From the NCBI RefSeq assembly GCF_000743755.1, contig NW_014569514.1, forward strand, positions 1-57,742: DNA of 57,742 nt, given 5' to 3'. Source of the DNA: Blastocystis sp. subtype 4. Lineage: Eukaryota. Position 1 is the stretch's first letter, and each line of letters starts with the position of its first letter. The translations under genes were made by a program, and so were the position numbers. This document shows positions 601 to 56,051 of this stretch, one piece after another. The notes beneath the pieces are model-generated. The model saw nothing but the letters and a program-made list of their open reading frames with translations. It did no database searches and was not told the DNA's origin.

Positions 601-1516
601 ATGGAAGAAGATACAAATAAGAGTGCTAACACTAATACACAGCTAACCCTTGTAGATCCTGTAATAGATGCTGTTGCTTATCTACAAGAGATTGCAAAGA
701 ATCCAAGCAAAAAGAAGTACCAATAGGAGGTGAGGATGAGGATTAGTCTTCAGACTAATCCCGAATTATTTGATATCTTGGCCTTGATCCGAAATCGAAT
801 GTATCGAAAACCGAATCGGTCGTTGTCAAAACACAAGATGTAGGGAATAATCAAGTAATTGAACTGCAGAGCTGAAAAGAAGGAAAAAATTCAAGGAAGC
901 ATACATACAGATAAAGTTAAGGGGAATGGAAATCCTCAGCCAGTTGTAACTGATTATTGCTGTGATTGCTCTCTACCTATCTGTAGGTTTCGGTTGCTGT
1001 TATGGATGTAGCTGGTGATTGGACTCCTTGGGAATCTCAAAGTCCTATAAAAGCAGCAAGCAAACTTGGGCGAGGTCGTAGAATTGGTCAGTCACAATAT
1101 CAGATGGAAACATATTTGTCGTGTGTGAACAGCATCTATGGACAGCGAAGTGTTATTCCATATGGACTTCACAGCACGCAACTTGTCGTCTTATGTATGT
1201 TCTTTTATCGTAGTACTTGTTTCGACGTGCTCGACTCCTTGGTCAATTAGCCTCGGATCTCGTTCCACAAACCCCTTTAGGTACTTCCTTTGATATAAAT
1301 GAATTGTAGAGAAATGGTCGCCTCATGAAGTTGCTGTTTTTGAAGCGGCGATGTGTGTGTATGGAAAGGAGTTCCATCAGATCAGTGCCATTCTGGGAAC
1401 AAAGACTACAGCCGAAGTCATTGAATTCTACTATTCTTGGAAGTTTTCTAGCCACTATTACTCATGGAAAGCACATTATAGGAGTGCGAAGACCGATGCC
1501 GTGCATCGGGGTGGAT
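601..1516 (+). CDS. ELM2/SANT-type chromatin protein (multi-exon); stop probably created by polyadenylation at T1516
   Basis: Last exon KWSPHEVAVFEAAMCVYGKEFHQISAILGTKTTAEVIEFYYSWK is a SANT/Myb repeat; RIGQSQYQ resembles an ELM2 start; GT-AG introns of ~30 nt join the exons. Confidence 0.75.
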
Positions 1517-1520
1517 CATC

Positions 1521-1536
1521 TGTTTGTTAACAAACA
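1521..1536. terminator. Palindromic double polyadenylation motif TGTTTGTT/AACAAACA serving two convergent genes
   Basis: Perfect 16-bp palindrome between the 3' ends of the SANT gene and PSMB4. Confidence 0.85.
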
Positions 1537-1540
1537 GAAG

Positions 1541-2482
1541 AAACAAGCCATTTTGTGTCCAGAACATAAGGCTCACCCATCTCACAACCTTCATTCGTCA
1601 CCTTTGCGATTTGTATACGATTGCTTGCAAAGCAATTTCTGTAATAACCAACACGAGCACATTCCTCTAACATGGATCGAGCTTCTTCCTCTGTCATGTC
1701 AGGATGATATAAATCACGCATCAGAGGAAGACAAAAATAAACTCCATAAGCCGTAGACATGAAATCCTCTTCAAAGGCAGCTCCCAACTTGTCGACAACT
1801 CCAAGGAATCTACAAAGAGTTATTTCTGTTGACGGAAACGGAAATGCCATCTAGAAGCAATTCCTCTGTATCAACAACTCTCTTCGAGTCGGTATGGTGC
1901 AGAATGAACAACAATCAAACAACAACACACCACCTACGGTTTTCCGTCCTGCATTCCCACAACAACAATGTTATTCCACAGCGGTTTCATATCTGTTCTT
2001 GCATTATATAACCAGCAACGTAGATAGTTGAATGTAGCAGAAGCAGTCATTAGCGAATTGTCGTCCATGAAACAAGACTCATCTCTAGACATTCACATCG
2101 AAAAATGCATTCGTACAAGATACGATCCAATTCTTCACAAATACAAGTGAAGTCGCTATATTCACCATCGAAGGCAATAATAACATTGTTTCGAAGAATG
2201 TGCATTTTCTGAACACGCTTAAACATGGCCATACTTCCATAAGAAGCTAACCGATAACAACATCAAACTTTTCATTACCAAGGGTATCTGTACATAGAAG
2301 GACTCCATCTTTATATTTTGCTGCAAATACTGCACTACCTGTAACAATAGGATCACTTCATAGTCAAATCTGGATCCGAAAACCTACGTGGTTCGCTTTA
2401 CTGGGACGGAAATTGTATGATCTTTTTTCTGACTAATGAACTGCATCGATATGAGCGACAAATTGAGAAGTGAAGACAACAT
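1541..2482 (-). CDS. PSMB4: 20S proteasome subunit beta-7 (PSMB4/Pre4); stop probably created by polyadenylation at T1541
   Basis: DPIVTGSAVFAAKYKDGVLLCTDTL, ASYGSMAMFKRV, GEYSDF, LGVVDKLGAAFE, AYGVYFCLPLMR, YYRNCFASNR...DTKW. Confidence 0.9.
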
Positions 2483-2782
2483 GGTTTATTGCCAACTAGC
2501 TTGAATTCCCGTGATCATCGGTTCTTTCTTTCTATTGAACAGAAAAGTTGCCACTATTCTAGAATAGCTTAATGGCTCATTTTAAACAACAGTGATCCTG
2601 AGGATAACTCTAAATAACATGTATTGAAAGCAGATTCAGATTGAAAGGCATTTATAATAGTGAGACTTTTTGAAAGGCGAATTAAGCACAAACCCTACGA
2701 TCACACGGGAGTTCACGAAGAATAGCTATTGTCCACTTCGTTACTTGTTGCAGTACATGTAGATGACTCCATAGGAAATAAA

Positions 2783-5700: not shown

Positions 5701-6539
5701 CCAAATGCAGTCACTGAGTCAGCTGTTTCCTAAAGAACTGGAATGGGTTCCATATCATTTCAGTGAGGTGTTTAAAGAGAATTCGGAGGTGGACTGTATT
5801 GCTCATCGTAGTGGTTTACAGCTGCTTTTTGTAGCCTTAGTTCGAGAACGTTATGAGCTGCTTCAAGATGTGTACCGATTCCTGGAAATGGAGGTATGGG
5901 TAAACAAAGTGGCTGAATTCTAGGAAGCTCGACATGTTGAAGCAGGAGAAGCACTTCCACAGGAATTTCTCGTTGATCATGTTCTAACAGTGTTATGTTT
6001 GAATCTGCTTCATCAAGGGAATGTTCATCGAGTCATCACATTGTTCCAACATATTGAGTTTGCATGGAATGCAACTAATGAAGAAATGGAGGTCGAGAAT
6101 TATGCAGAGAGTCTTGATATTTTATTGGAGGGAAGTCATTGGATAATGCGTATGGAACAACGGGAATCAGAGGATATATTAATTAGTGAGCCACGAGAAG
6201 ATGGAGTAAGTGAAGCAGATATGGAGTAGGGGTAACAATAGGGAATGATGGATAGGTATCTATTGCATATGTTGATGTTAAAGGATTGTGCAGAATGGAG
6301 TCTATTATTGATGCTACTTCTATTGAAGACAAAACAGTTAGTTAGTTTTGCAATTGCAAGATCGGATTTATGGGATCGATTTGTGAGAGATTTCGAGGAT
6401 AAAGGCAAGTAGGAGAGAGATATAGTAGATTATTGATAGTGAATCAGTTGTTAATCTCCTCGATACTCTCTATGAGACAATTGAAGATATGAATAAAAAT
6501 GCAAACAAAGTATTTCATTCAATAAACAATGTACCTTAA
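2783..6539 (+). CDS. RIC1: RIC1-like Rab6 GEF subunit (beta-propeller N-terminus plus RIC1 domain); start approximate
   Basis: WD-like N-terminal ORF 2812-4341; RIC1-domain motif LEYLLH...LVRCLRKQERSTW...DDLEYAVTTISILQ; last exon ends NNVP* at 6537-6539. Confidence 0.75.
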
Positions 6540-9500
6540 CAATGGTTTGTTGGACCAACATCTAAATATGTCTTGAGAAGTTTCAGTTCTTCATCTTTCT
6601 CACTGATATCAATCATCACACAACCACTCATAGAAACATCATATACTTCATCATTTAGTGTTACATGATACAAAGCATGCATATCTTGTTGCTCTAATGC
6701 ACAGGATCCTGGATCAATCACTTCATCAAGACGTGATGAAGTCAAATATTCCTTGTACTGATCTCGATCAGCACCTTCACATCAATTCTTCTTATCTCAC
6801 TTACATTGGTATTCACTTACGGGTTGAACAGCTGTCTTCTTCAATTCATCATAATAGGAATGATAACTCTCATACTGCCTACAATTCAATTGATCCTTAC
6901 AGTCATACATCAAATCATGAAGAGCAATGTTCCGATGTGACGTGAAGACACAGTATTCACTCACTTTATCACTTACACGCCAATAATCATCCAGACGGAT
7001 ACTCCGAGGTCGTAGAGAAACACTTCCACGAATCGTTACTTGTCCTGGTGATGGTAATGAACCATTGGAAGGAGCAACTTGATCGCGAACACTCAGACGA
7101 AGATCTTCGTCTCCAGTTATCTCGCTCCGATCCTGATCCTTTTCCTCTCCAATTATAGGAGTTCGGAGCTGGGAACTTCGGCGTAGTGAAGATCGATTGT
7201 CTGTATCCACTTCATCCTCATCCTCATCATCTTCTTCTTGATTTCCCTTCAGCTTCTTCCCATCGTCCAAACCAACATACTGCACAGTTGAATGAGTACG
7301 TGTGTTCCAGTTCTCCCATGAACGAAATACAGTTGCTGGAACTCCAACCTCACCTTCATTGGCCATGGGAGATAAGTAATGCGGCTGGAAACAAGGAAGT
7401 GATAGAAGCTTGTCTAATTCACATGGTGAGTGTCTATATTCAATAAGACAGAATTCATCTTACGAAGAGTCGGCTTCAATCAACTGTTCCCAAACCAAAC
7501 CACGTTCATTACTGTGGGAATAGTACAGATCTTGAGATATGGATGGCAATGAGTGACAGAGCAAAGCTCCACAATAAGCACACAACAATGTATGTGAAGT
7601 GGGAGGTTTCTTACTGCAACAAGGACAGCGATCTGTGCTAGTACTTAAACGAAGAGGTTTCCACGGATCTCCATTAATTGATTGCTCATAAGTTAATAGA
7701 GGAAGAAACCACCACTTCTCAGGTGGAACAACACGTACCACTTCATCGTACGAATAACCGCGGTTATGTAAATAGTAATCATAGGTTGTTTTCCCGTTAT
7801 TAGTAGTATTTAAGAAGGCATGTTTTGTAGGTATAAATACTCCCAAGAATACATTCATAGCTTCCTGTTTGACTTTATCTGTAAATGTGTTGTTGTAATG
7901 ACGAAGAATGGTCGTGAATAATTCTTTTCGCTTCTTGTTCCCTTTTGTAATCTCAATCTTATTATGAGCATTGCTTCCTCCATATTGGAGACTAATAACA
8001 TCTCCTAGTTCCTTGTATCTAAAACTGAGACCAAGTGAATACACGATACAATTCAACAAGGAGTTGTTGGAGAGAGGATGATTCTGGTACACCAGGAGAA
8101 AACTCGATTCCCAGTGTGAAGAGCATTCGATACACGACTGTAAAGCTAAGGAAGAATTGAGCCACATTGGTTCGATCAAGACAGTCAATACAATTACTAC
8201 GCATCACACCTCGTTGCTCGAGATGATGGTTTTCAAGTAGACTCATTCGGAATGCATTCGTTAATCCTTCTATCTTAGAGCCATTTTTTACTTCATCTTC
8301 TTGATTCTCATTTTCTCTCATAACACGCCTATGAACCTCTGGTGAGATGTATGAGGCAAAGAAGGAAGTGGCACTATAATCGTAAGAATTAGACATTTCT
8401 ACTCAAGACTCATTCGAGAATGATACAACAAGATATCATGCAGGAGAGGATTCTCAACACTAGATCGCTTAGCAATATCAGCAAAGTCAATATGCCAATA
8501 AGTAATCTTCATTCCTGTTGGCATCTGTTTATTGACAAAGCTACAGCTTTCACGAAGTAGGTCACAGACAAGAGATTCCCTTGGGTGTTTCTCTTTCATC
8601 TTCACTAAGTCAAATACCTGAATAGGAGCTGAATAGCGCTGTAATAATAATGATAGATGTTTTGTGAAGGTTCGGCAGAGAGGATCATTTAGAACAATTT
8701 GAATAGGAGGTCGTGGGACTGCTACACTTACGTCCTGTTTCCAATAACCAGGAATACTACCACGAAGTTGAACATGACTGCATATATGTCCCTCTTCATC
8801 TTCAATGATAGTTTCAACTTCTACTTCGTTGGCCACATATCCATCATCATTGATGCCTCGCTTCAGATAACGAGGACCAGCATACATCCTAATATTAACA
8901 ATTGATTACAGAGAGTACCGACTACGACGAGCAATGAGTGTTAATTGAAACTGTCGACTATATTGAATACAACGTTGCTGAAGGAATACTCCATGAATGA
9001 GATAACAGTACCATCTGGATGAAACGCATAGACTGAATTCGGAGAGAAGATATGAATTCCAGACAAACATCTCTTGAGGTTGTGATGGACAATCATGTGC
9101 CTGAACGAGGATATTATGCTGAACACAATGAGATAAGGGATAACGATAACTAAAATAGAAACCTTTGGTGAGATCCACCATGTTGAAGAGACCAAGACAT
9201 TTCTCCTCCAAATCCTATAGATAAGAGCAAATACTCAATATTACATCCATTTCTGACTTCCCTGAGAGAAGACTGTGGAAAAGACTCTTTGATGAATCCA
9301 CAGTGAGGGGAATAATATCATAACTCTACAAATAAGAAGGATGGAATGAAGAGACAAGAATGGAATAGATAATGTGGCCCATGATGATTCCTTCAGGTTT
9401 GGTTTCTGTTGCGATCACTAAGTAGTAGTATCGAGTGAATCTAACAAAGCCAAGAATGGCTTTGGCAGAGGTTAGACGAGTCAAACCTCCCGTTCTAAGG

Positions 9501-10179: not shown

Positions 10180-10290
10180 CAATTCAATAAGACAATTTAT
10201 TACTGTAATATGAATCACGGTTTTTAAGGATTTCTACCAAGTGCTTTAGGCTCCTAGCAATTCAGTATACTTGGTATATATTAGTATATC

Positions 10291-13107
10291 ATGAGTGAAA
10301 CCATTGAACAGCCTCCAGGAAATGAAGATGGAGAAATAATTGCATTCGATCAGAGTGATTCTACGGAGGAGTCGGATGATCGTGAACTTATTGATGAAAT
10401 TATTAAAATGGACTATGAGAATGAAGAAGAAGAGGAAGAAGAAATCGAGGAAGAGGTTTGTGAGTGGGCTTGTGCCTATTGCCAGAATAGTGATCCTACC
10501 GCCGTTGCTCGTTGTGTTGTATGCGGTCGGTGGTTCTGTAATTCGTATTGCCATTCTGGCTCCCATATTATCAAACATATGATTTATAGTGAGCACCGAT
10601 CCATCTCTTTGCATCCAGATGGCCTCCAGCCTGATTTTGTGGACACTCCAATTGCTTGTTTCAATAATCCTCAACACACGAATATTTTTACGTTGGGTAT
10701 TATCCAGAACACACAGGGATTCTATTCGATTATTTGTCGTGACAACTGTCTGGATAAGTCCCGATTGAAAGAGCTGAATTGGGATGCAGACACATGGAAA
10801 CATCTTGTCAATGACCGCCACATTGCATCATTCCTTCTAAATGATGAAAAGGCTGATGAACGTTCGGTGATCAAAGTGACGGATGAAGAGATTCGGAACT
10901 TGGAAAATCTCTGGAAGACACGTCCTGAAGCAGGTCTGGCTGATCTTCGGATGAATGCCGGTCAGAATGAGGATGAGTTGGAACATGTTCCTCTGACATT
11001 CGGTTCCGCAAAGACCTATCAATCTATTTTTGATCCATTGATTTCGTATGAAGAGAGCAGCGATAAGATGGACAATGATTCAAAATGTCTTGAAGATGTT
11101 GCTATTCGTTGGGAAAATGGTATTAATGATTCTAAAATCGCTGTATTCCATAACGATGTCACAGACAATCGATATCGTATGAATGTGGGACAAATGATCA
11201 AATTGCATCTTCCAGTATCTTTATTAAACACGAAAGAAGAGTTGGTATATCAAGGTAAAGTGATTCTTATTGAAGATTCGGAGGTTCATGTAGAAATGAA
11301 AGATTCCTCAAATCTGCCTCTGGGTCAAACAAGTGGCTTTCGTGTGACCTTCTTGTGGAATGGAACTTCGTTCCAACGGATGCGTGAAGCAATCAAAGGA
11401 CTCTTTTATGATACATCGATGTCCGAATATCTCTATCATCGCTTGATGGGAAATCCCGTCACTCCACATCAATTCCCGTTTTTACCGCTTTCATCATTTT
11501 CTGTCCCTGGTATGCCGGAATTGAATAGTTCACAGATTGCTGCTGTTCAGGCTTCCTTACAGAATGAACTGACTCTCATTCAAGGGCCACCAGGAACAGG
11601 CAAGACATGTGTGGATGTGTTTCGTGTTTGATTCATAGTGACTTCGTCCAGTATCGTTTATCATCTTGTTCGTCGTTATAAGCAGCGTGTGTTGGTATGT
11701 GCCCCCAGTAACATTGCTACAGACAATCTTACATTGATGATTCATAAGATGGGATTGAATGTAGTACGAGTGGTGGCTCGATCACGGGAAACTGTTTCAT
11801 CTAGCGTAGAGAAGTATTGTTTGCATAACATGGCGCCTTATGTGGGTGGAACTCAAGGCGAATTATTCCAGTTGAACAAGCGGGCCCAGGAAGTTGGACA
11901 ATTATCGCCTCGAGAAGCCTCTCTCTATGCGACGTTGATGAACAAGGCTGAATTGGCAATTCTCAAGGCTGCTGAAGTGATTTGTTGTACATGTGTGATG
12001 GCAGGTGATCCTCGTATTCGTCGCTTCCCATGCCCGAATGTATTAATCGATGAAGCAACACAGGCACGGGAACCAGAATGTTTGATTCCCATTGTGAATG
12101 GATGCAAACGACTCATTCTCGTAGGTGATCACGAGCAACTGGGTCCTGTAATCCTGGACCAGAAAGCAAAACGAGCTGGATTTGGGATGAGTCTGTTTGA
12201 ACGACTTCTTGCTCTTGATATACTTCCCTACTGCCTGAATGTTCAATATCGAATGCATCCTTCTCTCTCTGAGTTCTGTTCTAACACATTCTATAATGGT
12301 GAACTACAGAATGGTATTCCTATTGCGAATCGTACTCGAAATATCGATTTCCCATGGCCACGTTCTGATAAACCAATGATGTTCTGGGCGATAATGGGTT
12401 CTGAAGATCCAGGTTCCTCTGGCCGTTCTCTCCAGAATCGATTAGAAGCCAATGCTGTGGAAGCAGTAGTGGCTCGACTTCTTGCTTGTGGAATTGAAGG
12501 AAGTCGAATCGGTGTGATTACTCCATATGACAGTCAACGAACACTACTTCGTCAGTTCATTCAAACGCGCAGCTCATCGAATCCTCAGCAACGGAAACTC
12601 GTAGAAATCGCTTCAGTAGACGAGTTCCAGGGTCGAGAAAAGGATTATATCGTGTTCTCCTGTGTACGGTCTAATGCCAGCGGAGTTATTGGATTCTTGA
12701 AGGACTATCGACGAATGAATGTAGCTTTGACACGAGCTAAATATGGAATCGTAATTGTGGGTAATCCAAGTACATTAAAAATGGATCAATTATGGGCTTC
12801 ATTACTGTCATTCTATCAAACTCGGAAATGTCTAGTAAGTGGAGCTACACTGGATAATCTCTCTCACTACATGGTTCATATCAAAAGTTTGGATAATCCA
12901 AACTTCTATGTTGACAAATATGATTTGGCAAAGAGACGTATGGAAACCACATGGAAATATGAGACAGCAGATACTCAAGTATTCTTAGGTATGTTAGGAC
13001 CCACTCTTGAAGGAGATGGGCTTAGCAATGTACATTCATCAATCCCAGCATCCGATATCTTAAAGGGTATTCCCGAAGATATGGATATAGGTGATACAGG
13101 TATTTAA
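10291..13107 (+). CDS. UPF1: Regulator of nonsense transcripts 1 (UPF1 SF1 helicase)
   Basis: CH zinc domain (CAYC...WFCN...GSHI), IQGPPGTGKT, DEATQA, VGDHEQL, QYRMHP, VDEFQGREK, RRMNVALTRAK; one 30-nt intron at 11609-11638. Confidence 0.97.
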
Positions 13108-13110
13108 GAG

Positions 13111-13118
13111 TGTTTGTT
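13111..13118 (+). terminator. TGTTTGTT polyadenylation motif 3 nt after the UPF1 stop
   Basis: Exact motif; position -5 falls inside the TAA, implying no 3' UTR. Confidence 0.8.
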
Positions 13119-13147
13119 ACAATTAGTGTTTATACAAAAAGGAAAAA

Positions 13148-13221: not shown

Positions 13222-13285
13222 ACGCTTCATTTTTTCATAGATAACTATACAAAGATATGAACCTGTATGCATCTCTATCCATACC

Positions 13286-16200: not shown

Positions 16201-16400
16201 GTCGAACGACTTATGGTTATGGTCATTTGCGAGATGTTCGGAAGAAGGGTTCGATTGACAATCGAGCTGAAAGTTTTTTCTTTGCAGAAACTTCGAAATA
16301 TGCTTACTTGTTATTTAAGGATGAGAAGATTGTGGATTTAGTGAAACAAGTATTCAATACAGAAGCACATCCCTTATCAATTCTTAGTGAATCATCGTGA
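13286..16400 (+). CDS. Type II membrane GH47 alpha-1,2-mannosidase with an N-terminal LamG/ConA-like domain
   Basis: TM segment near the N-terminus; ISFWFR...WNHVVLVFD...YFNG...PLYVGG (LamG); AWGNY..AWGADE, VFEFNIRIVGG, LAELGT, ADSYYEYLLK, HLTCF, LRPE, ESFFFAETSKY, FNTEAHP (GH47). Confidence 0.9.
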
Positions 16401-16437
16401 TTTTGTTTGTTAAAGTAAAAATTCCATCAACTATGAT

Positions 16438-17249: not shown

Positions 17250-18519
17250 ATGTTGGATGTTATACTTCTGATTTTAATTCTTTTCATTACTACGAATATT
17301 TCAAGGAGCGTAGAGTTTGTTTGTCATCAATGAGGAGTAGAGTTATTCGCAAGAACGTTTTTCCCTTACTGTCGTTTATACCAATCGTGCCTCTCTGCGA
17401 ATTGTTCCTACCCATCGTGCCTCTCCGCAGACTATTCCTTCTAATCGTACGTCTCTGCAAACTATTCCTCCCAATCAAACCTCTCTGCAAACTATTCCTC
17501 CCATTCGTTCCTCTTTACAGACTGTTTCTACCATACAACCTGATTCAGAACCTGTCATTTGGGGAAAACCACTGAAAGACGAGACCTGGAAGATTAGCAA
17601 AGCGCTACAAATGCTAATTGAAGGAAAACCTAGCGAACCAAATAATGTCATTATCTTCTCTCCAAATGTTTGGGCTGGATTTTGCAACAACTTTCGGACT
17701 ATTCGAGGACTTGCGCTGTATTCAATCCTAAAAGGCTTCAAATTGAGAAGTGGAGATAGTGGTTTTCAATTATAATTAGTTCTCTGGAAAGAGTATTTCG
17801 AGGTGATGAGCCCTACATTGTCTGTTCTGTCAAAGACTACTAGTCGGTCATGTGGTTTTATCGCGAACTTTTATGATAATGTTAATAATATGAATCTGCA
17901 TGGATGCTATTATACAAACGAAATCATGGATGTAACTGACCTCCTATTGAGTATCGAGGAAAATAGAAAGAAACTAGTTGAATTGGGTTTCTTTAGTGAT
18001 ATTCCGAAAAATGAAGAGGTCACTCACTTCCTTTCACTGGTATTTTTCCAATTGAATAGTGTTCTGCAAAAGGAGGTTGATGAATTCTATTCACAATATC
18101 GAAATGATTTTCTAGTTGGAATCCAGCTCCGAACTGGGGGCAAGTTGTCGGATTCTTATGAGAGTAGCATGTTTCTGACTGAGGAAAAACTACCATTAGC
18201 GTATGCATTTATTATGGAAGCAATTCGAAATACGACAATGCCAAATGTAACAGTGTTTTTGTCTACCGATTCATCGTATGTCCAAGCTGATGCTAAAAAG
18301 AATCTTCCTTACACTGTAATCAGTGCAGATATGTACAAGATTGGTCATTCATCGCCAGAGAGGCAACGTCAAAAAGTGCTTGATTGCACAAAGCGAGCCG
18401 TTGTTGATATCTATCTTCTATCTAAGTGTTCTGTTCTGATTACTACTGGTCATAGTTCATTTGGAGATACTGCAAATGCACTTTCACTTGCAACTACCAA
18501 ACTCCACCTCTTTGTATAA
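17250..18519 (+). CDS. Secretory-pathway fucosyltransferase-like protein (GT-B; NodZ/FUT8/GT37-like motifs) with a repeat stem
   Basis: Signal/anchor MLDVILLILILFIT; AGFCNNFRTI, VGIQLRTG, VFLSTDS, AVVDIYLLSKC...GHSSFG match the alpha-2/6-fucosyltransferase motifs I-III. Confidence 0.75.
17383..17532 (+). repeat. Five imperfect 30-nt tandem repeats encoding NRTSLQTIPP-like units
   Basis: NRASLRIVPT HRASPQTIPS NRTSLQTIPP NQTSLQTIPP IRSSLQTVST. Confidence 0.9.
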
Positions 18520-18558
18520 CACTACTTTTGCGGTCTTGTTTGTTGGATATCAAACCCA

Positions 18559-19308
18559 TTACTTATTGATTCCAAATGGAAGACGAGGATCACTGGCTGG
18601 TCGAAGCATTCTCCAGTAAGGAGGGAAATTCGACATAATCTCTTTTCTCTCAAGTACAAAAAATCCGTGTTTCTGGTAAAACGGGAGATTTACTTCCTTG
18701 GAACTCTCAAGATAGATTGGGTAATTGTGTTCATCTGCATACGAAGTCAGTTCTTTCATCATCTTGGATCCGTATCCTCGTTGCTTTTCTGCACTCTTCA
18801 CCCCAATTTGGAAGACATAGATATGATTGAACTAGATTCAAGTATTCTACAATCTCATACTGGTGGATGGTCACCGTTTGTCACAGTTGAAAAGTAAAAC
18901 ATCTATGAATTCAGTATCACCCACAATCACCTACTCGAGCGATTCCCCGCAACGATCCTGCGATATCATACCAATTCCAGGGTGTTAGTACCGATGAAAT
19001 GGCGTAAGAGTTACCCATTGGGCAGTTATCACGTATCCACCTACGATCATCAGGAATAAACAGGACTACCATATCATAGCACCTGTTTTCTCTTCATTAA
19101 TATACACACTACCCCCTTGTACACATGGAGGAAGAATGTTGTCATACAATCTTTGTAATCCATGCTCTTTGTGTTCATCTTTTCTTACTAATGCACACTG
19201 GACTATGGATAAAAAGATAGAAAGAAGATTACCAGGATCCTCACGGAAAGCATCTGTAAGTATTTCCTTGGCAATCGCCATATTGTTGTCATTGGAAGCC
19301 TTTTGCAT
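18559..19308 (-). CDS. GNAT-family N-acetyltransferase (puromycin-acetyltransferase-like)
   Basis: ILTDAFREDP...GAMIW; YIFQIGV...QRGYGSKMM (motif A); IYLESSKEVNLPFYQKHGF (motif B). Confidence 0.85.
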
Positions 19309-19417
19309 GTTTGTTATACTCTTCTATCAACTTGAGAATAATTGAGACGAAGAATACAGAAGAAGATCCTTGGGATCCCACAATAAAGACTTATAAGAAA
19401 CACAAAAACCATTCAAT

Positions 19418-21199
19418 TTACAGTTCTTGCTCTTCAAGATTCTCAGAAGCCACCTCTTCAACCTCTTCATCATCAAGATCACTTGCGAGTTCCATTTGAG
19501 TCTTCTCCTCCTTCTCCTTCTTTTCCTGTTGAGCACCTTTCCCTTATGAATCCAAACAAGTCATACGAGCCAATTCATTGTTCAACCACTCAATAATGCC
19601 ATCAGCAGTACGTTCAGGAATATCGACATTGTTCTCAAGAGGTTCGCCTTCACGGAAGTAACGAATAACAGGATGGTCAGTAATATTGAAACGCAACTAC
19701 AGGAAACCCACAGACTCATATCCTACACGAATCGTCTCATACCGAGCAGCATTCACAGAAGCGAAATAGACATTCAAAGGATGCTTCGCGAAGGCATCTC
19801 GATAGACCTGAGCAAACTCTCGGCATTCAGGACAACGGAAATCATAGAAGAGAACAAGAACATTCCGTTTTCCATTCAACACACGATCAACATTCTGAGA
19901 ATGCATAATTATCTGATTATCATTCCTCCTTCAAACACATACACTACGAGTTGTTTCGATTGGTTCAAATTGATGCAAAATATTGAGACGAGCAACAGTA
20001 GGAGCATACTTCTCATCAGTCACAGGAAGAGGGTCTAAAGTATAGACTGTTGAGTTAATACGATCATAAATTATGGTAGGATCATTAGCAATAATCTACA
20101 CTAATTATTACTCTCTATCAGACTCACATCCTTCATTATACTATAATAGATAGCACTATTCTTATATAACTTTCTCTCCTTTCGAACACGATGCATGATC
20201 TCTTGACGAGTTTCTACATTCCCCTACAATCAATAAGAACCTTCATTTCTACATTCAAGAACTGCTCTGCAAGTTCATCCAACACTGCATCTCGTCCATA
20301 GGTTTCATCCAGACCACCATCCACAACACGATGAGTACCCAAATGCTCATTCAAGAATAGCACGATGGAATCGACTGTGGGAAGACGAGGGAAGGTATGA
20401 TTATACTCGACATTTTCAGCAGGAAGGAAGAGCATAGAAGGAGTATCACCTACATTCAGTTCCTCACAAAGATCGTGCATCAAGGAACAATCAATCCGTC
20501 CAAAATCAATACTGGGCTCCATCTAAAGTGGATCGAAAGGAGGAAGACATACGGCAAAGGATTCAGCTGCCTTTTCGACCTGAATGGAGAAATCATAACA
20601 AGCTCGTTCGAAGGGAGACATGATTTCAATGAAGTGAGATACCGACTTGTCCTCTTTCATCTTCTCGTAAAGAGGCTTGTTAAGGAATTTAACATAACTC
20701 TTCTTAGGGATCATTCCCGTGGCTTCTGTTATGAAGTCAGTCTAGTCATAACAAATGTAAAGAATAACTACCAAAGATTCGGAGTCAAAATGCTGGACAC
20801 AACGAGTACCTCCTTTGGTAATCAATCGGAGCTCTAACTTGGCAGATTCTGGGTCCACATCACAGAATTCAGCAGCTTCAGGAACCTTATCGGTGTCAAT
20901 TGCACCAAAGATCATCTTTAACTAATCACTACTTAACTAACCCACATCATTCTCCTTCTCAAAGAAATAGGTGAGAAGATTCGGATAATACAACTGCCAA
21001 CGGCAACTTGGACACTGCGAACCACGGAAAGCAACAACAAGATATCTTTCAGATTCATCACTAAAGAATTCCTTCATATCTTCAGGTTCCAACTCGTTTA
21101 TTTCCCTAGCATCACAATCCTTAATGATAACTACATGGCCAAGTACTTCTTGCATTGTGTAATAGAAAGCAATAAAAGAGCAATAATAGCAAATCTCAT
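19418..21199 (-). CDS. ER protein disulfide-isomerase-family protein (thioredoxin domains, ERp29-C domain, further thioredoxin domain, EQEL tail)
   Basis: Signal peptide MRFAIIALLLLSITQC; CPSC and CPEC sites; GGLDETYGRDAVLDELA...RLNILHQF (ERp29-C); acidic tail ending EEQEL*. Confidence 0.8.
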
Positions 21200-21525: not shown

Positions 21526-22970
21526 ATGGCAAGTCGAGAGTTGATTTTGACGTTCCTAGGAACAGGAGCAATGAAACCAGCTTTTCGCCGTGGAAGTAGT
21601 TGTCTAGACATTGGAATCAATGATTAGCAAGTGCATTAGGCCTGACAATTCCAACCATTCGAGGGACGGAGAATTGGTTATTTGATTGTGGTGAAGGTAA
21701 AATATGGTATTTACTGTAAAAGGAAGGAACATTCCGACAGATGTGCATTTTCAACCGTCAAGCAAATCACCGAGTCATTAATTCCGAAGACCAGTCAAAG
21801 TTAAATGGAATTCGCTTTGGATGCAATAAGCTCAATCGGTTGTTCATTTCTCATCTTCACGGAGATCATATTTTTGGCCTCCCTTCAGTGATATTAGGTG
21901 TCAGCTTTGAGAGAGATCCAGAGTTGAACGAATCCTCACCGATTGACATTTACGGACCTTCTGGCCTAGCAGAATATCTCAGTACAGTATTTCGTGTTTG
22001 TGAATCTCGTATTTCATGCAAGCTCAATATCCACGAGTTGTGTCAATGGAATCAGCCTAGTAGTTGTAAGTGTAAGTAGGTCGCTTCACAATAGATATTT
22101 CCTCCTCTGATCCGAATTATTCTCATTTGTCTGTTCAACCAATCTATCCTAATGGTGATCGAATTTGGTGTTGTATAGACGAAGAATTCGGAACTGTGAA
22201 AGCTGGGACCGTATCACACAATATTACTACATTTGGATTCAGTTATCAAGAGAAAGATCAACCAGGAAATCTGAATGCTAGTTGTGTTTTGCCTCTCCTT
22301 AAACGGAATGAAGAGGGACTCCAGCAAATGGGATTATCTATATATGAGGTTATCCATCGCTTCAAAGTAGTATTAGGATTGAGGATTGATGGTAGAAGGG
22401 AGAAGAGTTCGTTTTGCCCGATTCGACAGTTTTAAGTCCTTCAAACACGCTTTATCTATCTCCGATGAAAAAAGGACGACATGTCTCTTTTCTCGGTGAT
22501 AATCGTTCTGCTAGACGAATATCGAATCTCATTTATGGGAGTGACATTTTAGTACATGAAGCAACGATTGGTCCAATTCCAGATGATGTTGTTCCAAAAG
22601 AAGGTTTGATTGGATCACGTTGGCTTTCAATTGGGTTGTAATTTCCAGAGTCATCAAATCAAAACAGCAAGGAATTGAGAGCTCTTGAGAAAAGTGTCCA
22701 TTCAAAGGGACACAGTACAGCTGTTGAAGCTGCTCGATTTGCAAGAGAGCTAGGGGTGAAAACGTTGGTTCTGAATCATATTTCGAATCGTTATGATTTC
22801 TTGGATGAGAAACATTATAACGAGGCTGTAGATTCTATTCGGTCAATTGCAATTGTATATGGAATGAACTGATGTTGATTTATAGAAGGAGTTTGGGTCT
22901 TCGCAAGTGTATGTCCCTCATGACTTCGATTCTGTCGTTTTAGATGGAATAAAACGACAATTGTCACTTT
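21526..22970 (+). CDS. rnz: Short-form tRNase Z (metallo-beta-lactamase); stop probably created by polyadenylation at T22970
   Basis: LTFLGTGA, WLFDCGEG, FISHLHGDHIFGLP, IYGPSG, FLGDN, LVHEAT, GHST, LVLNHISNRY, PHDF. Confidence 0.92.
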
Positions 22971-22974
22971 GTCA

Positions 22975-22982
22975 TGTTTGTT
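22975..22982 (+). terminator. TGTTTGTT polyadenylation motif of the RNase Z gene
   Basis: Exact motif with T at -5 in codon position 1. Confidence 0.8.
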
Positions 22983-24104: not shown

Positions 24105-24167
24105 AGACTCGTTTTTTCTCATGTTTGATAAGAAACAATAGAATTACGTTAGATCAATCAACTATTG

Positions 24168-28416: not shown

Positions 28417-28453
28417 ATCCTGTTTCTTGCAACAAAACAACATACAGTAACAT

Positions 28454-31797: not shown

Positions 31798-31847
31798 TGT
31801 GATTGTTATGTACTATTGTTTGTAACAGTTCCTTCGTTCATCATAGA

Positions 31848-33836: not shown

Positions 33837-34040
33837 TCTTGTTTGTTTCAATCGAGAATGGAAAAACTGTGGCTGCAAAAGAATTACGGGAATTTTTAAA
33901 CACTATGCGAACTTGGGTGATGAATCGTCTTACCTGAGAAATGGTTCTTTTACCAGATTTTCTAAGATAGAACATTTACTAACAAGGACAATGTTTTCTG
34001 TAGGAGCGAGATGCTGTTTTTGTGGTTTCTTACCTTCTAG

Positions 34041-46000: not shown

Positions 46001-46116
46001 ATTATATCTATGAGAACATGGGAGACGAGTGTCAGTGCTTCATTACTAATGAGAAGTGCGAGTGTAGATGTGGTAAGGAGAATCTAGTTGACACTGTGAT
46101 TGGTATGTTCCTCTAA
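34041..46116 (+). CDS. Giant (~4,014 aa) secreted protein with many bacterial-type Ig-like domains, FN3 domains and a six-Cys C-terminal module
   Basis: Signal peptide MILVALLLLSCSTA; one intron 34357-34387 then an 11.7-kb open exon; recurring D.AGN and D..PP.V linkers (Big-type), GLNANTNYRV and GLKPETEYRV (FN3), Big_5-like C-terminal repeats. Confidence 0.88.
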
Positions 46117-46130
46117 ATTGTTGTAAAGAG

Positions 46131-46138
46131 TGTTTGTT
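46131..46138 (+). terminator. TGTTTGTT polyadenylation motif of the giant Ig gene
   Basis: Exact motif 14 nt after the TAA. Confidence 0.75.
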
Positions 46139-48457: not shown

Positions 48458-49229
48458 ATGGAAAAACAACTCTTGATATCTACAGGGATCGTGAAAAATG
48501 CCAGTGGAAGTGCCTATGTCGAATTAGGAAACATGAAGATTCTGTGCTCTGTACATGGTCCTAGAGATACATTTCTGATGCAAGGAGTGAACGAGAAAGG
48601 AAAACTCTTCTGCGATTTCAAATATGCCCCTTTTGCAAAGAAAGACAGTTATGGAACTGGAGGTGAGGTAATTTTGACACTTCCACTTCATACAATAGGA
48701 TCGTGAGACTCGATCGATTTCTTCCCTTCTTGAGAAGACGATCATGTCCACTGTTGATGTTGATTCATTCCCAAAGGCTGTTGTAGAGGCCTACGTTCGA
48801 GTGTTGGAAGTAGATGGAGATCCTCTTGGTTTGTCGATGATGTGCGTTTCTCTTGCTTTAACAGATGCGGGGATTAATTTGTTTGGACTCCTTGGATGCT
48901 CTTGTGTGGTATGGATGTATATTTAATCTTGACAATTAGAGTGTGATGAAGGATAACTCGATTATAATAAATCCTACCTCCTCTGAAATAAAAAACTGTA
49001 AATGTTATACAACTATCGCTATTCTGAATTCCACCAAAGTTGGCATGTTACTCCCACTTTACTGTAGGAAGTAGTTTACGTATCCCACTGTGGAGCAGTG
49101 ACACCGGAGATTTGTGCTATGGTTTATTTGAATTTGTTTCCTTACTGGTAGAGTATATCGAAAGCTGTTGAAGAGTCATCACGGCTATGTATAACAATGC
49201 GTGATTACTTGATCCAAGTCAGTGCTTAG
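48458..49229 (+). CDS. EXOSC6: Exosome RNase PH-like subunit Mtr3
   Basis: [69 protein letters not shown]. Confidence 0.8.
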
Positions 49230-49292
49230 TGTGTTTATTTAGTATTTGTTTGTGTGAAGACTCCCGCTCTTTTTCGAATTGCCACATTCCTA

Positions 49293-51273
49293 ATGGAGGA
49301 AGCATCTTCAGACGTGTTTCGCATCCTGATTGCCACAGACAATCATTTAGGATACAGGTAGCTCTGTAATAATTCAAATGATATATTAGAGAGTCGGATC
49401 CAATTATCGGAAATGACTCCTTCCAAACGTTTGAATTCATCCTAAAGACTGCTGTAGAAAAGAAGGTTGGTTGATTTAGAGTTCGTTAAGTCTTAGGTCG
49501 ATTTTCTCTTGCTTGGAGGCGATCTGTTTGATGCCAATAAGCCATCAAGGAATACCCTGAATAAGACAATTGAGTTGCTTAACAAATACTGTTTAGGAAC
49601 CGGTGACATTGATTTCACGTTCCTCCCAACAGAAGACTCTCCCTTGGTTACTCTGTGAGATTATATGAGTTTTCTAATGGAATAGACCAGTTAACTATGA
49701 AGATGAGAATCTAAACATTTCGCTTCCTGTCTTTGCTATTCACGGAAACCACGATGACCCAACTCGTGAAGTAGAAATACCTATATCGTATGATGGATAG
49801 GGCGCAGAAGGAGAGGCTCTGTCTGCTCTAGACATTCTCAATTCAACTCGTTTAATCAATTACTTCGCCCGTGTTCAGAAGTGAATTCGTTCTCTTTCTT
49901 TCATTCTTAGTGTTGATAATATCCAGATTCGACCTCTTCTCTTCCGGAAAGGCAAATCTCGTTTGGCTATCTATGGAATGGGATATGTTCCTGATGAAAG
50001 ACTCTCTAGGATGTTTGAGCAACATCGAGTAACATTCTTTAGGCCACCTGAGGAGGATCAATGGTTCAATCTGTTTGTCATCCATCAGAATTGTGAATCA
50101 CGTCCTAATATGCGTTCAATGCGTCTGGATTTGTTACCCCAGTTCCTCCAGCTTGTCATCTGGGGACATGAACATGAATGCCGGATTAACCCTTCATGGA
50201 ATGATGAAGGAGTGAGAACAGAACACAATTCTGATAAGTAGAAATTCTACACGATGCAACCCGGTTCTTCATGTGTGACATCACTAATCGAAGCGGAGAC
50301 AGTACCAAAACATGTTGGCTTAATTGAAATCCAAGAAAAGGATTTTCGTGTACTACCAATTCCCATTCCGAATGTATCTCTCATCATGTGCTTTTAGGTA
50401 GATGCGTCCTTTTTTCTTCCGTCAGTTGTCATTATCGTCATATAGGCAACTCAATCCTTCCTCTCCAACGATCACATCAGAAATAGAGACCCTTTTTGAC
50501 ACTGAAATGGCGAATATTTTGGGATCTGTATCTTCTGATTCAACACTTCCTCTAGTTCGATTATCGGTTGATGTAACTGGATTCCCATCTATTCCTATCC
50601 AAATCTATGGTGCCAAATATGTGGGGAAAATCGCTAATCCGAATTCACTTCTGAATTTGCGTCGCAAACGAGTTACCAACACTGGAGTGTCCCGGTCCGA
50701 AAATGATGAATGTGCTCCTGAGATTGTTGGAGGTAAAGCTCAATTCGACCTAATGGTAAGTTTGATTGAACACAGTGTAGCTGAAGCGGGTGGTTTGCAA
50801 TTGTTGAATGAGCGACATATGAGAGAGGCATGTAGGTGTTATGAGAGATATGTGATACAGTGTCTCAATTTGTGAATAAGGGTTGCTCTACTTCATGGCA
50901 TACGATGTTGGTTCATCTTGGACGATTAGTGGGGACAATGACAGAAACTCTAGATATGACTGGATCGGATCCTACCAGTATTCTAAAGGCAATTAAGGAG
51001 GTTGATGTGGGAAGTGGAACTGATCTCTAGAAGTATGATAAGGATGGAGTGGAGTATCTTTCTACACTGAGGTAGAAGAATGTAGGTGGAATTAATTGTT
51101 AGTCGTGATATGAACGTTGAGGAAGTGGAGGAAATTGTGGACCTCAATGAAGATTCTGACAATGGCCCTGCTCCAAAGAGGAAAACGATTCAGTAGGACT
51201 GAAAATAGTCATTCATTCTAGAAGGAAGCGAGGTGCTGCTTCTGGTCGTCAAACAAAAGGAGGAATTGTATAA
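49293..51273 (+). CDS. MRE11: Double-strand break repair nuclease Mre11
   Basis: [75 protein letters not shown]. Confidence 0.95.
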
Positions 51274-51359
51274 TAGAATGAATGCAAGTGTTTGTTGGAA
51301 CTACTTTGGAGACCGAAACCCCGTTTTCGCTATGTTCTTATATTCTCTCCAATTATCAA

Positions 51360-51752
51360 ATGTTTGCTGTTAAGAAGTTGATTACCCCTCTTAAAACGGT
51401 AGCTAGGATAGGAAAAATGAATATTTCCAGCACAAGTGCCTTGTTTGAGAAGTTCAATATTCTGGTTCCTCCTATGGGGGAATCAATCAAAAACGGTATA
51501 TATAACCAATTAGAATGATCTTTAGGCACTTTAGTGCAATGGGAAAAACAACCTGGGGAGTTTGTCGATGTAGATGATGTTGTAGCAGTTGTTGAAACCG
51601 ACAAAGTACCGAAAATTCGTGAGATTGACCATTAGGTGAGTATGGATGTTCGTTGTGATAAGGCTGGTTATCTCGTGAAGCAATTAGCAAAGCCTGACGA
51701 TACAGTAAATGTTGGCGCAGTGATTGCAGAAATGAACACTGAGAAGTGTTAA
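51360..51752 (+). CDS. Stand-alone lipoyl-domain protein (~110 aa; E2o/DLST-like domain) with a mitochondrial presequence
   Basis: VPPMGESIKNG/TLVQWEKQPGEFVDVDDVVAVVETDK/VSMDVRCDKAGYL...DTVNVGAVIAEM; introns 51496-51525 and 51606-51635; TAA followed by TGTTTGTT at 51756. Confidence 0.88.
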
Positions 51753-51860
51753 TCGTGTTTGTTACAAAGAAGCGAACTATGAATGGAACATCCGAATGTA
51801 CATAAATCGCCTAATAAATTCCACACCACTCTTACACAAGCCAAGACCCATAACTAGAGA

Positions 51861-54197
51861 TTAGACATGAACAAGAGAACTACCTATCAAAATGGCACAA
51901 AGCACAACAATCACATAGAAAATTAGTGAGCTATTCCACAGATTTGTCGTTGTATCCTGTAACAACTCATCTCCATTATACATCAAACAGCGAATCAATC
52001 TTTGATCCTGCTGGAGTTCAAGATAATCTTCATTCGGTGTAGTTAACTCCTCCTTTCCAAACTTCGAGTTTTCTGACCACAAATACCGTCTAAAATATGA
52101 GTACACCAAGGAACACTCAGTGCCCGCAGCACACAATTCACGATCCTTAAGCATACTATCCTGAAGATGGGCTATTGTGTCTTCTTTCTGATGTCCCTCC
52201 ACCTCACAGTGATGAAGTGTCTCTTCTATAGAAATTCTGTTCTTTTTCTCTAGAAGGATCTCCTCCTGCAGTTTGTTAATCTCTTTGTCCTTATCCATAA
52301 GCAGCGATTCGCTCTCTCTCTTCATTCTCTCCATCATTTCCTCCATCTCTCTCTGCTTCAATACGATTTCTTCATCCTTCTGTTGTAACAAAAGAGTCTG
52401 TGATTTCAACTCATTTTCAGCCACATCCAGAGAGTGCTCGAGACGACGTACCTCTAACTCCTGCTCCGAGAATGAGTTACGACACTCATGAAGCTTCTTC
52501 TCCAATGATTCTGTGATACTGATCTGATGTTGAGTTTGACGAAGCTGGGTTTCAAGAACTGACTGTTGGTTAAGAAGCGATTGAGAGTAGAGTTTCTCTT
52601 GTTCCAATTGATGGACTAATGAAATTCTTTCTCCTTGGAGCGACTCCATCTCACTTTTTTGGAAGGCAAGCGTATTGTGTAGATGGTCCAATTGAATATG
52701 GAGATCTGTTGTATTCTCACACTCAATGTTGGGACAACTAATATCAGGACACTCAACAGAAGGACACTCAACAGAAGGACACTCAACAGAAGGACAATCC
52801 ACAACAGGACAATTGATTGGAGGACATGTACACTTAGGACACTCCACAATAGGACAATTGATTGGAGGACATTCAATCGAAGGGCAATTACAGTCTGGAC
52901 ATTCTATGACAGGTGTCACAATAGGAGGTGGTGATGAACGAGAATGGAAGAAGGTGATGAACGAGTCCCACACTCTCAATAAATGATGCTTGATCTTCCA
53001 ACCAGTTTCACTGATCCATTCTCGGATTCGATAGCCTGTGCTTGCTGTCGGCTGACACTGACACTGAGGATTGAGATCCGAACGTTCTGATGATTGGAAG
53101 AATGCGATAAGAATGAAAATATTGAAACAGACTAAGGCGATCCCAAGTAGAATTAGAAGGATATGAAGGAACTTCTAGAAGTAAAAGAAGGAATAGAAGG
53201 AGACTTGAATACGAGGAGAAGACTTAAGATAATTCATGAGAGAAGAGAAGGAGTATGATGAAATTGAATGAGACTGGGGTGGTCTATGCGACTTCATAGA
53301 AACAGAAGATGAAGGAACTGAAGGTTTCGGAGGCTCTGGAGGAGAAGATACAGAAGTGACAGGAGGAACAGGAGCTGGAGTAACTGATGGAGAAGTCACA
53401 TTAGTGGATTCATTCACACTCCTTTCAATAGTAGAAGAAGATGGGGTATTAATCAATGCTAACTTCTCAGAGAGAATCATAGAAGCATCATTGTAGAGAC
53501 CAATTACATCGGGATCGAGTCGTTTAAATGCAAAAAGGGATTTTAAAACAACCAACAGCCTTGAAATAGCCTGAAGATTGCTAATATCGGAGATGTTCTT
53601 CTGAATCACCTGATATGTGCATTTGATCACAAAGGATAATGTATGTTCATCTAGAAGGTTACATAAATAGAATAAACGAACCATTCACATTATGACTCAT
53701 CAAGGAATAAAGGAACATGCGAACCTCAGTAGTATCAGAAGAATTTTTGACAAATTGAATCACCGAACTCTCAATTAAATCTTGAAAATCCTAGACTCAA
53801 CGATCTCAATCAAGCATACTAGCGAGTGAGTATAGAATTGGATTAAAACAGAAGAAATCTTCACGAAAAAGACAGAAGAATGATCTTTGAGAGAAGATGC
53901 CATAATTGAAACTAAACGCATATCCTCTCTCATCAAATCGGCATCAGAATGTTGTACATCCATCTCCATCATCATCTACTCAGTATTCACCGAATGCCAT
54001 CCATACAGCAATGTCTCCATAGACTCCTTCAATCAATTTCCAATCTGTTAAATCATTGATCTGTTGAAGATTATCTTGAAGTGAAGTAATGGCAGTTTCA
54101 CGATTTGTTGCAGTCGTTGTCTCAACAATCGCTTGCAGACAATTAGCAATCTAACCAATTTAAGGGAAATAGAGCTCATTACCCTCTTTTCAGTCAT
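51861..54197 (-). CDS. Hypothetical membrane protein: helical N-terminus, Pro/Ser linker, TM, Cys-Pro repeats, long coiled coil, C-terminal TM
   Basis: ORFs 53775-53975, 53175-53684 and 51861-52979 plus a TM exon LLILLGIALVCFNIFILIAFF; separated by ~30-nt introns. Confidence 0.65.
52713..52907 (-). repeat. 13 tandem 15-nt units encoding xxCPx pentapeptides
   Basis: IECPD CNCPS IECPP INCPI VECPK CTCPP INCPV VDCPS VECPS VECPS VECPD ISCPN IECEN. Confidence 0.92.
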
Positions 54198-54590
54198 TCT
54201 TTGGGTTTTCAACCTATTATTGGGTGGCGCAATTGTTCCCTATTATCTGTTGTGTTGTAGATCTATGTTTTGATAGGTAAATTGAAATAGCTAGCATAAG
54301 TTTAGCACCTCAGAAGAAAAGAATTGAAATGGTATCTTTGAACATCTTATATCAATAAAAGCGTTAGCAGCATTGCAACCATGATTGCAGCAAACTATAC
54401 TATATATTTTGAATAATAGTATATATGGGACACCACATGTAGTGGAAAGAGAAAGAAATGTCCTTAATATATAATAACACCTTATTATTGTATTTTACGC
54501 TCTATAAAATAAACTATTAGGAGCCCTACTATCCTTCCACCTTTCCCTATTTCCCCTTTTCATCTGACTCATATTTCTTTATAACTGACA

Positions 54591-55912
54591 ATGCTTGCTA
54601 GTACGTTACAATATTCCTTTAGATAATTGTTGTAGAGGCTGCTCGTGCTCTTAAGCCTACTTTCATTCGTTCCTTTGCTACCAGCCGCTGGGCTGCTGTA
54701 AGTGTCTTAATTCATCATATAATGAGATAGGTGGCTCAGGCTCCTCCAGATGCCATTCTTGGACTGAATGAACAGTTCAAGGCTGATAAGGATCCTCGTA
54801 AGATCTCTCTCGGAGTGGGTGCTTACCGTGATGACAACGGAAAGCCCGTGATTCTCCCCTGCGTTGCTGAGGCTGAGAGACGTATTGCTGGAAAGAGTGA
54901 TCACGAGTATCCTCCTATTCAGGGTCTTCCTGATTTCAACCGTCTTGCTGCTGAGTTCGTCTATGGAGCCGATAGTCCTGCTATTAAGGAAGATCGTATT
55001 GCTGTGTGCCAGGCTCTGTCCGGAACTGGTTCTCTGCGTCTGATTGGAGATTTCCTGAAGAACGTGAAGGGTTATGAGCGTGTTTACATTCCTAATCCCA
55101 CTTGGCCCAACCACTTCGGTGTGTTCAATGCTGCTGGAATTCCCAATGTGAAGTACACTTATCTGGATGCCAACAACAGATTGAACTTTGACGGTATTCT
55201 GAACGAGATTAAGAATGCTCCTGCTAAGTCTGCCTTCCTGTTCCATGCTTGCGCTCACAACCCTACTGGCGTGGATCCCACCAAGGAGCAGTGGAAGCAG
55301 ATCAGCCAGGCTGTGAAGGCTGCTAACTGTGGTGTTATCTTTGATTGCGCTTATCAGGGATTCGCCTCTGGAGATATGGAGGGTGATGCCTTCGCCATTC
55401 GTCAGTTCGTTGCTGATGGACATCAGATCTGTTTGGCCCAGTCCTTCGCTAAGAACTTCGGTCTTTATGGAGAGCGTTGCGGAGCTGCTTCCGTTGTGTG
55501 CGCCTCCAAGGAGGAGAAGGAGCGTGTCCTGTCTCAGCTGAAGGTGGCTGCTCGTACTCTGTGGTCCAATCCTCCACTGTATGGAGCTCGTATTGTCCAG
55601 ACCGTTCTGGGTGATCCCAAGCTGAAGGCTCAGTGGTATGAGGAATGCGCTGGAATGGCTCATCGTATCATCTCGATGCGTCAGGCTCTGGTTGAGAACT
55701 TGAAGAAGGCTGGAAGCACTCGTGACTGGTCTCATATTACTAGCCAGATCGGTATGTTTGCTTATACTGGTCTGACCAAGGAGCAAGTCGAGAGATGCAT
55801 CAAGGAGTATCACATCTACTTGACCATGAACGGACGTATCTCCATTGCTGGACTTAACACTCACAACGTGGAGTACGTTGCTAAGGCTTTCCATGAGGTG
55901 ACCAAGAACTAA
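54591..55912 (+). CDS. GOT2: Aspartate aminotransferase, mitochondrial
   Basis: APPDAILG, LGVGAYRD, QALSGTGSLR, HACAHNPTGVDP, FDCAYQGFASG, QSFAKNFGLYGER, SNPP, QIGMF, GRIS; presequence exons from 54591. Confidence 0.96.
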
Positions 55913-56051
55913 GACTATTCGTAATATGTGGTATGTTTGTTCCAACAAACAGAAGAATCCTCTTTGGTTCCAAATAGAATGTGAATCAATGTGATGATTC
56001 GACTATCAGTTTGGATATGATTCATATGAAACAAGAATAATATAAGAAAAA

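Follow-up and report, generated by a model that had tools for sequence, protein, structure and literature searches.

The present study examined how protein genes end in a 57,742-nucleotide (nt) stretch of nuclear DNA from the gut protist Blastocystis (hereafter the window), and it leaves us nearly certain that poly(A) is added to the mRNAs four bases ahead of the octamer UGUUUGUU and that, where an in-frame U stands at the cut, the tail completes it to the stop codon UAA, as seen in RNA for two genes and inferred for two others. The octamer is likely to be what sets the position of the cut, and it is a general cleavage and polyadenylation signal, tail-made stops being a minority among the gene ends it serves. 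RNA contigs from run X1 (73% of sampled words) were compared over positions 1-20000 and 19200-34100; the RNA status of this run is a tool's guess, for which the splicing and the tails argue. Six of these contigs finish in a stretch of 21-24 non-templated A's, joined at 1541 (-), 6539 (+), 18532 (+), 22970 (+), 24142 (-) and 28443 (-), and the distance from motif to cleavage site, which the preliminary description of this DNA had proposed to tabulate, is exactly four bases at all six, with 0, 1, 0, 0, 1 and 2 mismatches to the octamer, respectively. The chance of meeting the motif in this register (-5) is 0.001 per position with at most one mismatch and 0.008 with at most two. Two of the junctions carry an A ambiguity of 1-2 nt, and at four the genome has no A either on the joint or beyond it. 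In the proteasome beta7 (1541) and RNase Z-like (22970) genes, the final base read from the template, a U, occupies codon position 1 and is followed in the genome by C and G, respectively, so that the A's are untemplated and the UAA exists only in the mRNA. Of the other loose ends in X1, some are adapter and the remainder continue across an intron. Runs X2-X4 yielded nothing but short, unspliced pieces of low depth, none of them tailed. The eight gene ends in 34100-57742 are predictions.

In the DNA, the exact motif TGTTTGTT has 16 matches on both strands against 3.5 +/- 1.7 expected from 100 shuffles preserving dinucleotide content, none of which reached 16 (maximum 8). A search tolerating one mismatch gave 121 matches against 77.5 +/- 10.6 expected, so that most of these are background. 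We modelled 25 protein-gene 3' ends in the window by script and by eye, and the motif with at most one mismatch lies 5-45 nt from the first stop base or lone T at 21 of them (17 of 21 when the four lone-T ends, which were positioned using the motif, are left aside) and with at most two mismatches at 22. The same test on 4,000 random stretches gave a background of 4.4% and 23%, respectively, and a control just upstream, inside the genes, found the motif (at most one mismatch) in 1 of 25. Offsets from the stop are 5-7 in ten genes and 0-4 in none, as would be expected if cleavage four bases ahead of the motif has to spare at least the U of the stop. The 53 kb of modelled gene bodies contain no exact motif in sense orientation, where 2-3 copies would be expected, and two in antisense orientation, which is weak evidence by itself; five of the 16 exact matches stand away from modelled gene ends (2809+, 19308+, 30287-, 32371-, 55951-). 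Motif positions 3-5 and 8 are T in all 19 tabulated end sites, a partly circular count because 13 of these were predicted from the motif. AATAAA or ATTAAA was found within 40 nt upstream at only two of the 19 sites, and there is no conserved upstream AAUAAA. Inside gene bodies, 57 one-mismatch variants occur on the sense strand, 19 of them within stretches spanned by RNA contigs, and such variants alone are not diagnostic of gene ends.

The 22 gene ends with a motif fall into three classes. A tail-dependent stop on a lone T was assigned to four of the 25 genes (16%), by RNA at 1541 and 22970 and by inference at 1516 and 28416. In seven genes the cut falls in or at an encoded stop, as shown for RIC1 and predicted for UPF1, GH47, the lipoyl gene, RNase PH, the 31795 gene and GNAT, the last resting on a two-mismatch motif. 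Eleven genes have 3' untranslated regions (UTRs) of 3-28 nt, three of them shown by RNA, with EngA depending on its last intron. The 16 motif sites listed in the preliminary description were all found in place and on the correct strands, 11 exact and five with one mismatch (TGTTTATT at 6521- and 49232, GGTTTGTT at 6544, TGTTTCTT at 24130- and 28421), and its claim that the -5 base often falls inside the stop was borne out in UPF1, GH47, RIC1, the RNase-PH/MTR3-like gene and the lipoyl gene. In these five the genome already supplies a stop, and four of them have A's next in the genome as well, which makes templated and added A's indistinguishable; conversion of UAG to UAA by the tail is predicted at 49227 and possibly at 33834. 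The description of a window-wide polyadenylation-dependent stop system therefore holds for the motif, present at 21 of 25 ends, and for the UAA that RNA shows to be tail-made twice, but not for stops at large, which depend on the tail in only four of 25 genes. Likewise, the lone-T genes (1516, 1541, 22970, 28416) indeed have no stop before the cut, but genomic stops follow 4, 4, 4 and 14 codons on, three of them exactly after the motif. The warning that standard open reading frame callers extend such genes wrongly proved apt for a naive spliced gene finder, which fused neighbours and invented introns, although the lone-T genes themselves would gain only 4-14 residues.

Several observations weigh against so simple an account. 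Tails were seen at only six of the 17 gene ends in 1-34100, the rest being uncovered or their contigs too short, and all come from a single run whose contigs drop minor isoforms and give no isoform shares, while the gene models come from a simple script and include some spurious introns. Variants seen at gene ends also occur within genes where RNA contigs span them (TGTTTGAT at 12079 and 33449, TGTTTATT at 5358), the 45 nt scanned at three of the 25 modelled genes (16440-, 46166-, 51863-) lack any motif even with two mismatches allowed, and the tail at 28443 goes with a two-mismatch site in preference to a one-mismatch site lying 8 nt upstream. The site choice at 28443 and the contig-spanned intragenic variants together mean that the octamer alone does not fully explain the choice, and it is probably not the whole code. 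We hold it nearly an even question whether the octamer, though necessary, needs a second cue, for example the composition of the flanks, a pause of the polymerase or a collision with the convergent gene, which would add to tail completion at the octamer and not replace it. Besides the preference at 28443, this idea draws on the 19 contig-spanned sense-strand variants, some identical to those at gene ends, and on the motifs of convergent genes, which often stand head to head 0-2 nt apart (1521/1536, 24122/24137, 28421/28438). Against this, the T's at positions 3-5 and 8 suggest that most of the choice may come down to a weighted motif, contigs would not reveal partial cleavage at internal sites, and no upstream element was found in PMC4159000.

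It is very improbable, in our judgement, that the motif marks the cut while the four lone-T genes actually end at their genomic stops 4-14 codons on, the tailed forms being minor or decay products. The nearness of a genomic stop in all four genes agrees with such read-through, as does the RNA cover of only two of them by contigs that are silent on isoform shares. However, the assembly offers no 3' end for beta7 or RNase Z but the one with a tail on the lone T, the lone T of glutamine synthetase in a related metagenomic locus (L005) sits exactly where five other sequences (the window, L006, L007, L008 and L009/L010) have TAA after MFFNQS, and virtually no alternative ends are reported for such genes in the passages of Klimes 2014 (PMC4159000). 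Least credible of all, and largely refuted already, is the notion that mis-priming by oligo(dT) or faulty assembly produced the tails and that the motif simply reflects the composition of short, AT-rich intergenic DNA. Reliance on one run and the A-rich bases after many motifs would fit it, but four of six junctions are free of genomic A on the joint and beyond it, the spacing is constant in all six, the dinucleotide-preserving shuffles never give 16 matches, and in subtype 7 (ST7) expression depends on the motif: mutating it together with two T's upstream lowered the output of a reporter 324-fold, as stated in the passages of PMC6395660.

We compared stop types between lineages by a metagenome scan with glutamine synthetase III, which recovered ten loci: two (L001, L002), at 99.9% identity, are too close to the window to be informative, and eight are relatives with a guanine plus cytosine (GC) content of 51-60%. 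The last residues of glutamine synthetase are MFFNQS in the window and in all six relatives with a locus that covers the gene end; TAA and a UTR of 26-40 nt follow in the window, L006, L007, L008, L009 and L010, whereas in L005 four bases separate a lone T from an exact motif. For RNase Z, four loci from two lineages have LDGIKR or LDGMKR followed by TAG or TGA, where the window has CAA, three further codons and the lone T. A gene with an STI1 domain ends on a lone T in L008 and on TAA with a UTR in L010; the lone-T cases in L005 and L008 are read from DNA alone. Stop type differs between lineages in all three genes with a comparable lone-T end, the direction of change being unrooted, and these three orthologue sets suggest that stop type is labile between lineages. 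A 23-nt tandem duplication (L006 1997/2020, L008 8950/8973) gives two consecutive exact motifs at one gene end.

Because the cut is so exact, selection on the encoded stop and on the 3' UTR may be relaxed, as was also proposed in the passages of PMC12129017, and genes would drift among an encoded stop with a UTR, an encoded stop at the cut and a lone U. A bolder extension, which we offer tentatively and consider rather less likely than the opposite, is that the exact cut acts as a safety net freeing C-termini, that stop type switches gene by gene along two routes, that the C-terminal arm of beta7 was lost in this way and that back-up stops may be selected. Along one route the UTR would be lost down to a lone T, as may have happened in glutamine synthetase of L005 and the STI1-domain gene of L008; along the other, the old stop would become a sense codon and former UTR would be recruited as coding sequence, as may have happened in RNase Z of the window, and this second route would have removed the beta7 arm in the window lineage. 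In-frame back-up stops directly after the motif, seen in four of six lone-T cases, may likewise be selected: AA, AG or GA follows the motif in these four against six of 28 other ends, in a count made by hand (Fisher p = 0.048). This excess is not accepted as shown, because two of the four belong to one head-to-head palindrome in which the AA is the other motif's TT.

The beta7 protein of the window (1541-2480, -) has two residues after a conserved Trp, against 11-20 (median 18) in 118 of 120 homologues with that Trp, a sample of relatives of protein P0001 that includes many named diatoms and is not broad; human PSMB4 has 10 (position 254 of 264). Since read-through would yield no more than six residues, the arm is missing whichever way the end is read. 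The C-terminal extension of yeast beta7 matters for the joining of half-proteasomes, according to the passages of PMC8961534, and on the bolder reading above, 20S cores of Blastocystis would be put together lacking a clamp on which yeast depends. No Blastocystis orthologue of beta7 was found: one search gave a single match, no protein named Blastocystis appeared among the 120 homologues listed, and no paper on Blastocystis proteasome beta7 among the literature matches listed. The gene also carries a 128-nt GT-AG intron (1810-1937, -), spliced in RNA, in a genome of 30-nt introns; it could host a small RNA, and it gave no Rfam match.

The window is gene-dense with a GC content of about 41%, near that of subtype 4 (ST4; 39.4%, Table 1 of PMC12129017) and unlike subtype 1 (ST1; 54.5%). 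It is assigned to Blastocystis because the best named matches of the aspartate aminotransferase (54731-55909) are from Blastocystis, at 90% for ST1 and 75% for 'Blastoise', and the intron sizes agree: 116 of 135 modelled introns are 29-32 nt long, RNA contigs show spliced joints, and introns of about 30 nt are the Blastocystis pattern in the passages of PMC12129017. The UPF1, MRE11, La and proteasome genes are nuclear, with spliceosomal GT-AG introns removed in RNA. Pfam backs the names UPF1, GH47, RIC1, RNase PH, lipoyl, proteasome, La, glutamine synthetase III and EngA, and also kinase, GNAT, Sac1, MRE11 and thioredoxin, with several genes left without a name. The coordinates of the gene ends are collected in Table 1.

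Table 1. Protein-gene ends in the window and the motif associated with each
Gene	Position	Strand	Gene end
SANT/Myb-domain gene	1516..1528	+	Lone in-frame T 1516, 4 nt, TGTTTGTT; UAA likely poly(A)-made; Pfam Myb/DUF7952; read-through +4 residues
Proteasome beta7	1529..1541	-	Lone T 1541, 4 nt, TGTTTGTT adjoining the 1521 motif head to head; 24-nt non-templated poly(A), spliced contig; Pfam Proteasome, PDB beta7 matches
RIC1	6537..6551	+	TAA 6537-39, tail at 6539 (2-nt A ambiguity), GGTTTGTT at 6544; no 3' UTR; Pfam RIC1
Sac1-domain gene	6521..6538	-	TAA 6538-36, predicted 3-nt UTR, TGTTTATT 6528-21; untailed RNA contig end at 6535
UPF1	13105..13118	+	TAA 13105-07, predicted cut 13106, TGTTTGTT; RNA contig stops at 13055
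GH47 mannosidase	16398..16411	+	TGA 16398-400, predicted cut 16399, TGTTTGTT; no tail seen
NodZ/fucosyltransferase-like	18517..18544	+	TAA, 13-nt UTR, poly(A) at 18532, TGTTTGTT
GNAT acetyltransferase	18549..18561	-	TAA 18561-59, two-mismatch GGTTTGAT five bases on; cut predicted at T
Thioredoxin/PDI-like	19395..19420	-	TAA 19420-18, predicted 11-nt UTR, TGTTTCTT; orthologues end EEAEL* before an exact motif
RNase Z-like	22970..22982	+	Lone T 22970, 4 nt, TGTTTGTT; 22-nt non-templated poly(A); Pfam Lactamase_B_2; orthologues stop four codons earlier
La protein	24102..24129	+	TAG, predicted 13-nt UTR, TGTTTGAT adjoining the glutamine synthetase motif
Glutamine synthetase III	24130..24170	-	TAA 24170-68, 26-nt UTR, poly(A) at 24142, TGTTTCTT
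Weak SAP-domain gene (E=0.018, below cut-off)	28416..28428	+	Lone T 28416, 4 nt, TGTTTCTT; UAA likely poly(A)-made; read-through +14 residues
Big_5 Ig-like gene	28431..28456	-	TGA 28456-54, 10-11 nt UTR, tail at 28443/4, two-mismatch motif; one-mismatch TGTATGTT at 28446 unused
Unnamed gene	31795..31824	+	TAA 31795-97; two candidate variants at 31800 and 31817, choice unsettled
EngA/Der GTPase	33805..33847	+	TGA 33805 (28-nt UTR) or TAG 33834, depending on last intron; TGTTTGTT at 33840; RNA contig stops at 33726
Giant Ig/fn3 protein	46114..46138	+	TAA, predicted 10-nt UTR, TGTTTGTT
RNase-PH (exosome, MTR3/RRP41-like)	49227..49239	+	TAG 49227-29, cut predicted at T 49227 (UAG to UAA), TGTTTATT; two more variants 11 and 15 nt on
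MRE11	51271..51296	+	TAA, predicted 11-nt UTR, TGTTTGTT
Lipoyl-domain gene	51750..51763	+	TAA 51750-52, predicted cut 51751, TGTTTGTT
Aspartate aminotransferase	55910..55941	+	TAA, predicted 17-nt UTR, TGTTTGTT
HTH (CENP-B-like) gene	56494..56525	-	TAA; two one-mismatch variants 20 and 24 nt on

Some features of these ends and of their neighbourhood deserve mention in their own right. A single TTAA (6536-6539) is the source of the stop for both RIC1 (+) and the Sac1-domain gene (-), each motif lying inside the other's coding end. The UPF1 gene (10291-13107, +) is present in a genome where many mRNAs have no 3' UTR, and 30 nt past its motif lies a tRNA-Ile(AAT) gene (13148-13221, -). Exact motifs at 2809 (+) and 19308 (+) stand near gene starts with no gene upstream on that strand; the former may fall in the 5' region of RIC1, whose start codon is unsettled and whose RNA contig starts at 2877. 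Another exact motif, at 55944-55951 (-), stands head to head with that of the aminotransferase where no known protein gene ends; a 23-codon ATG-led frame ends before it on a lone T at 55956, and a signal recognition particle (SRP) RNA gene (56057-56343, -; Rfam Plant_SRP, 114 bits) lies 100 nt upstream on the same strand. The giant protein (34041-46116, +) has 4,014 residues, an N-terminal hydrophobic leader and Big_5 and fn3 matches, and a shorter Big_5 protein (28454-29831, -) has a Cys-rich end resembling that of the giant one; both are likely to be surface or secreted proteins. Glutamine synthetase type III (24168-26449, -) and the NodZ-like fucosyltransferase (17280-18519, +) belong to families commoner in bacteria. 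An inverted repeat of 102 nt with 99% identity (56394-56495 and 57641-57742), within which the window ends, flanks the gene with a weak CENP-B/HTH match, and this is possibly a pogo-like element without a catalytic domain.

The mechanism is already published, so that the window is a confirmation and no discovery. Its interest is that of a published exception, a nuclear genome that leaves stop codons to mRNA processing, and for annotation it means that gene ends need the motif or RNA, failing which C-termini are overextended and neighbours fused. This study adds two RNA-proved tail-made stops in a low-GC, ST4-like lineage, three orthologue sets with apparently labile stop type, and an armless beta7 that leads to a prediction on 20S assembly. 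No per-gene stop switching or back-up stops came up in the passages searched, which does not prove their absence; the supplements of these papers may list orthologue stop types. In particular, the passages of PMC12129017 hold no per-gene comparison of stop types between orthologues.

With reference to known systems, the preliminary description was right to call this one established for Blastocystis, as it was described by Klimes 2014 (PMC4159000), Gentekaki 2017 (PMC5608401), Li 2019 and Lind 2025 (PMC12129017). The window agrees with ST7 and ST1 (PMC4159000, PMC5608401) in TGTTTGTT, the four-base spacing, variants with up to two mismatches, the lack of AAUAAA and the lone U completed to UAA; the tail-dependent share of genes is similar, at 15% in ST7 and 26% in ST1 against four of 25 here, and no mechanistic difference was found. 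For ST4, the process was only inferred in the passages of PMC5608401. The 'downstream gene element' of human-associated ST1, ST3 and ST4 (PMC12129017) is likewise a motif enriched at transcript ends, in genomes with 30-nt introns and stop-less genes, for which relaxed selection is offered as the explanation. In animal, dinoflagellate and diplonemid mitochondria, reviewed in PMC4159000, the stop likewise owes its final base or two to the tail. The window genes differ from these in being nuclear, spliced genes of RNA polymerase II whose end is probably set by a GU-rich element, and not organellar genes in polycistronic transcripts. Mitochondrial transcript ends are set by tRNA punctuation. The metazoan downstream element, bound by CstF-64, resembles the motif in being GU-rich, downstream of the cut and removed from the mature mRNA, but the motif differs from it in being an octamer that hardly varies, in keeping a fixed distance and in having no hexamer upstream. 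The octamer may act as a strict version of the metazoan-type element, perhaps read by a CstF-64-like protein, the short, truncated CSTF2 of Blastocystis, whose binding is a hypothesis of PMC4159000.

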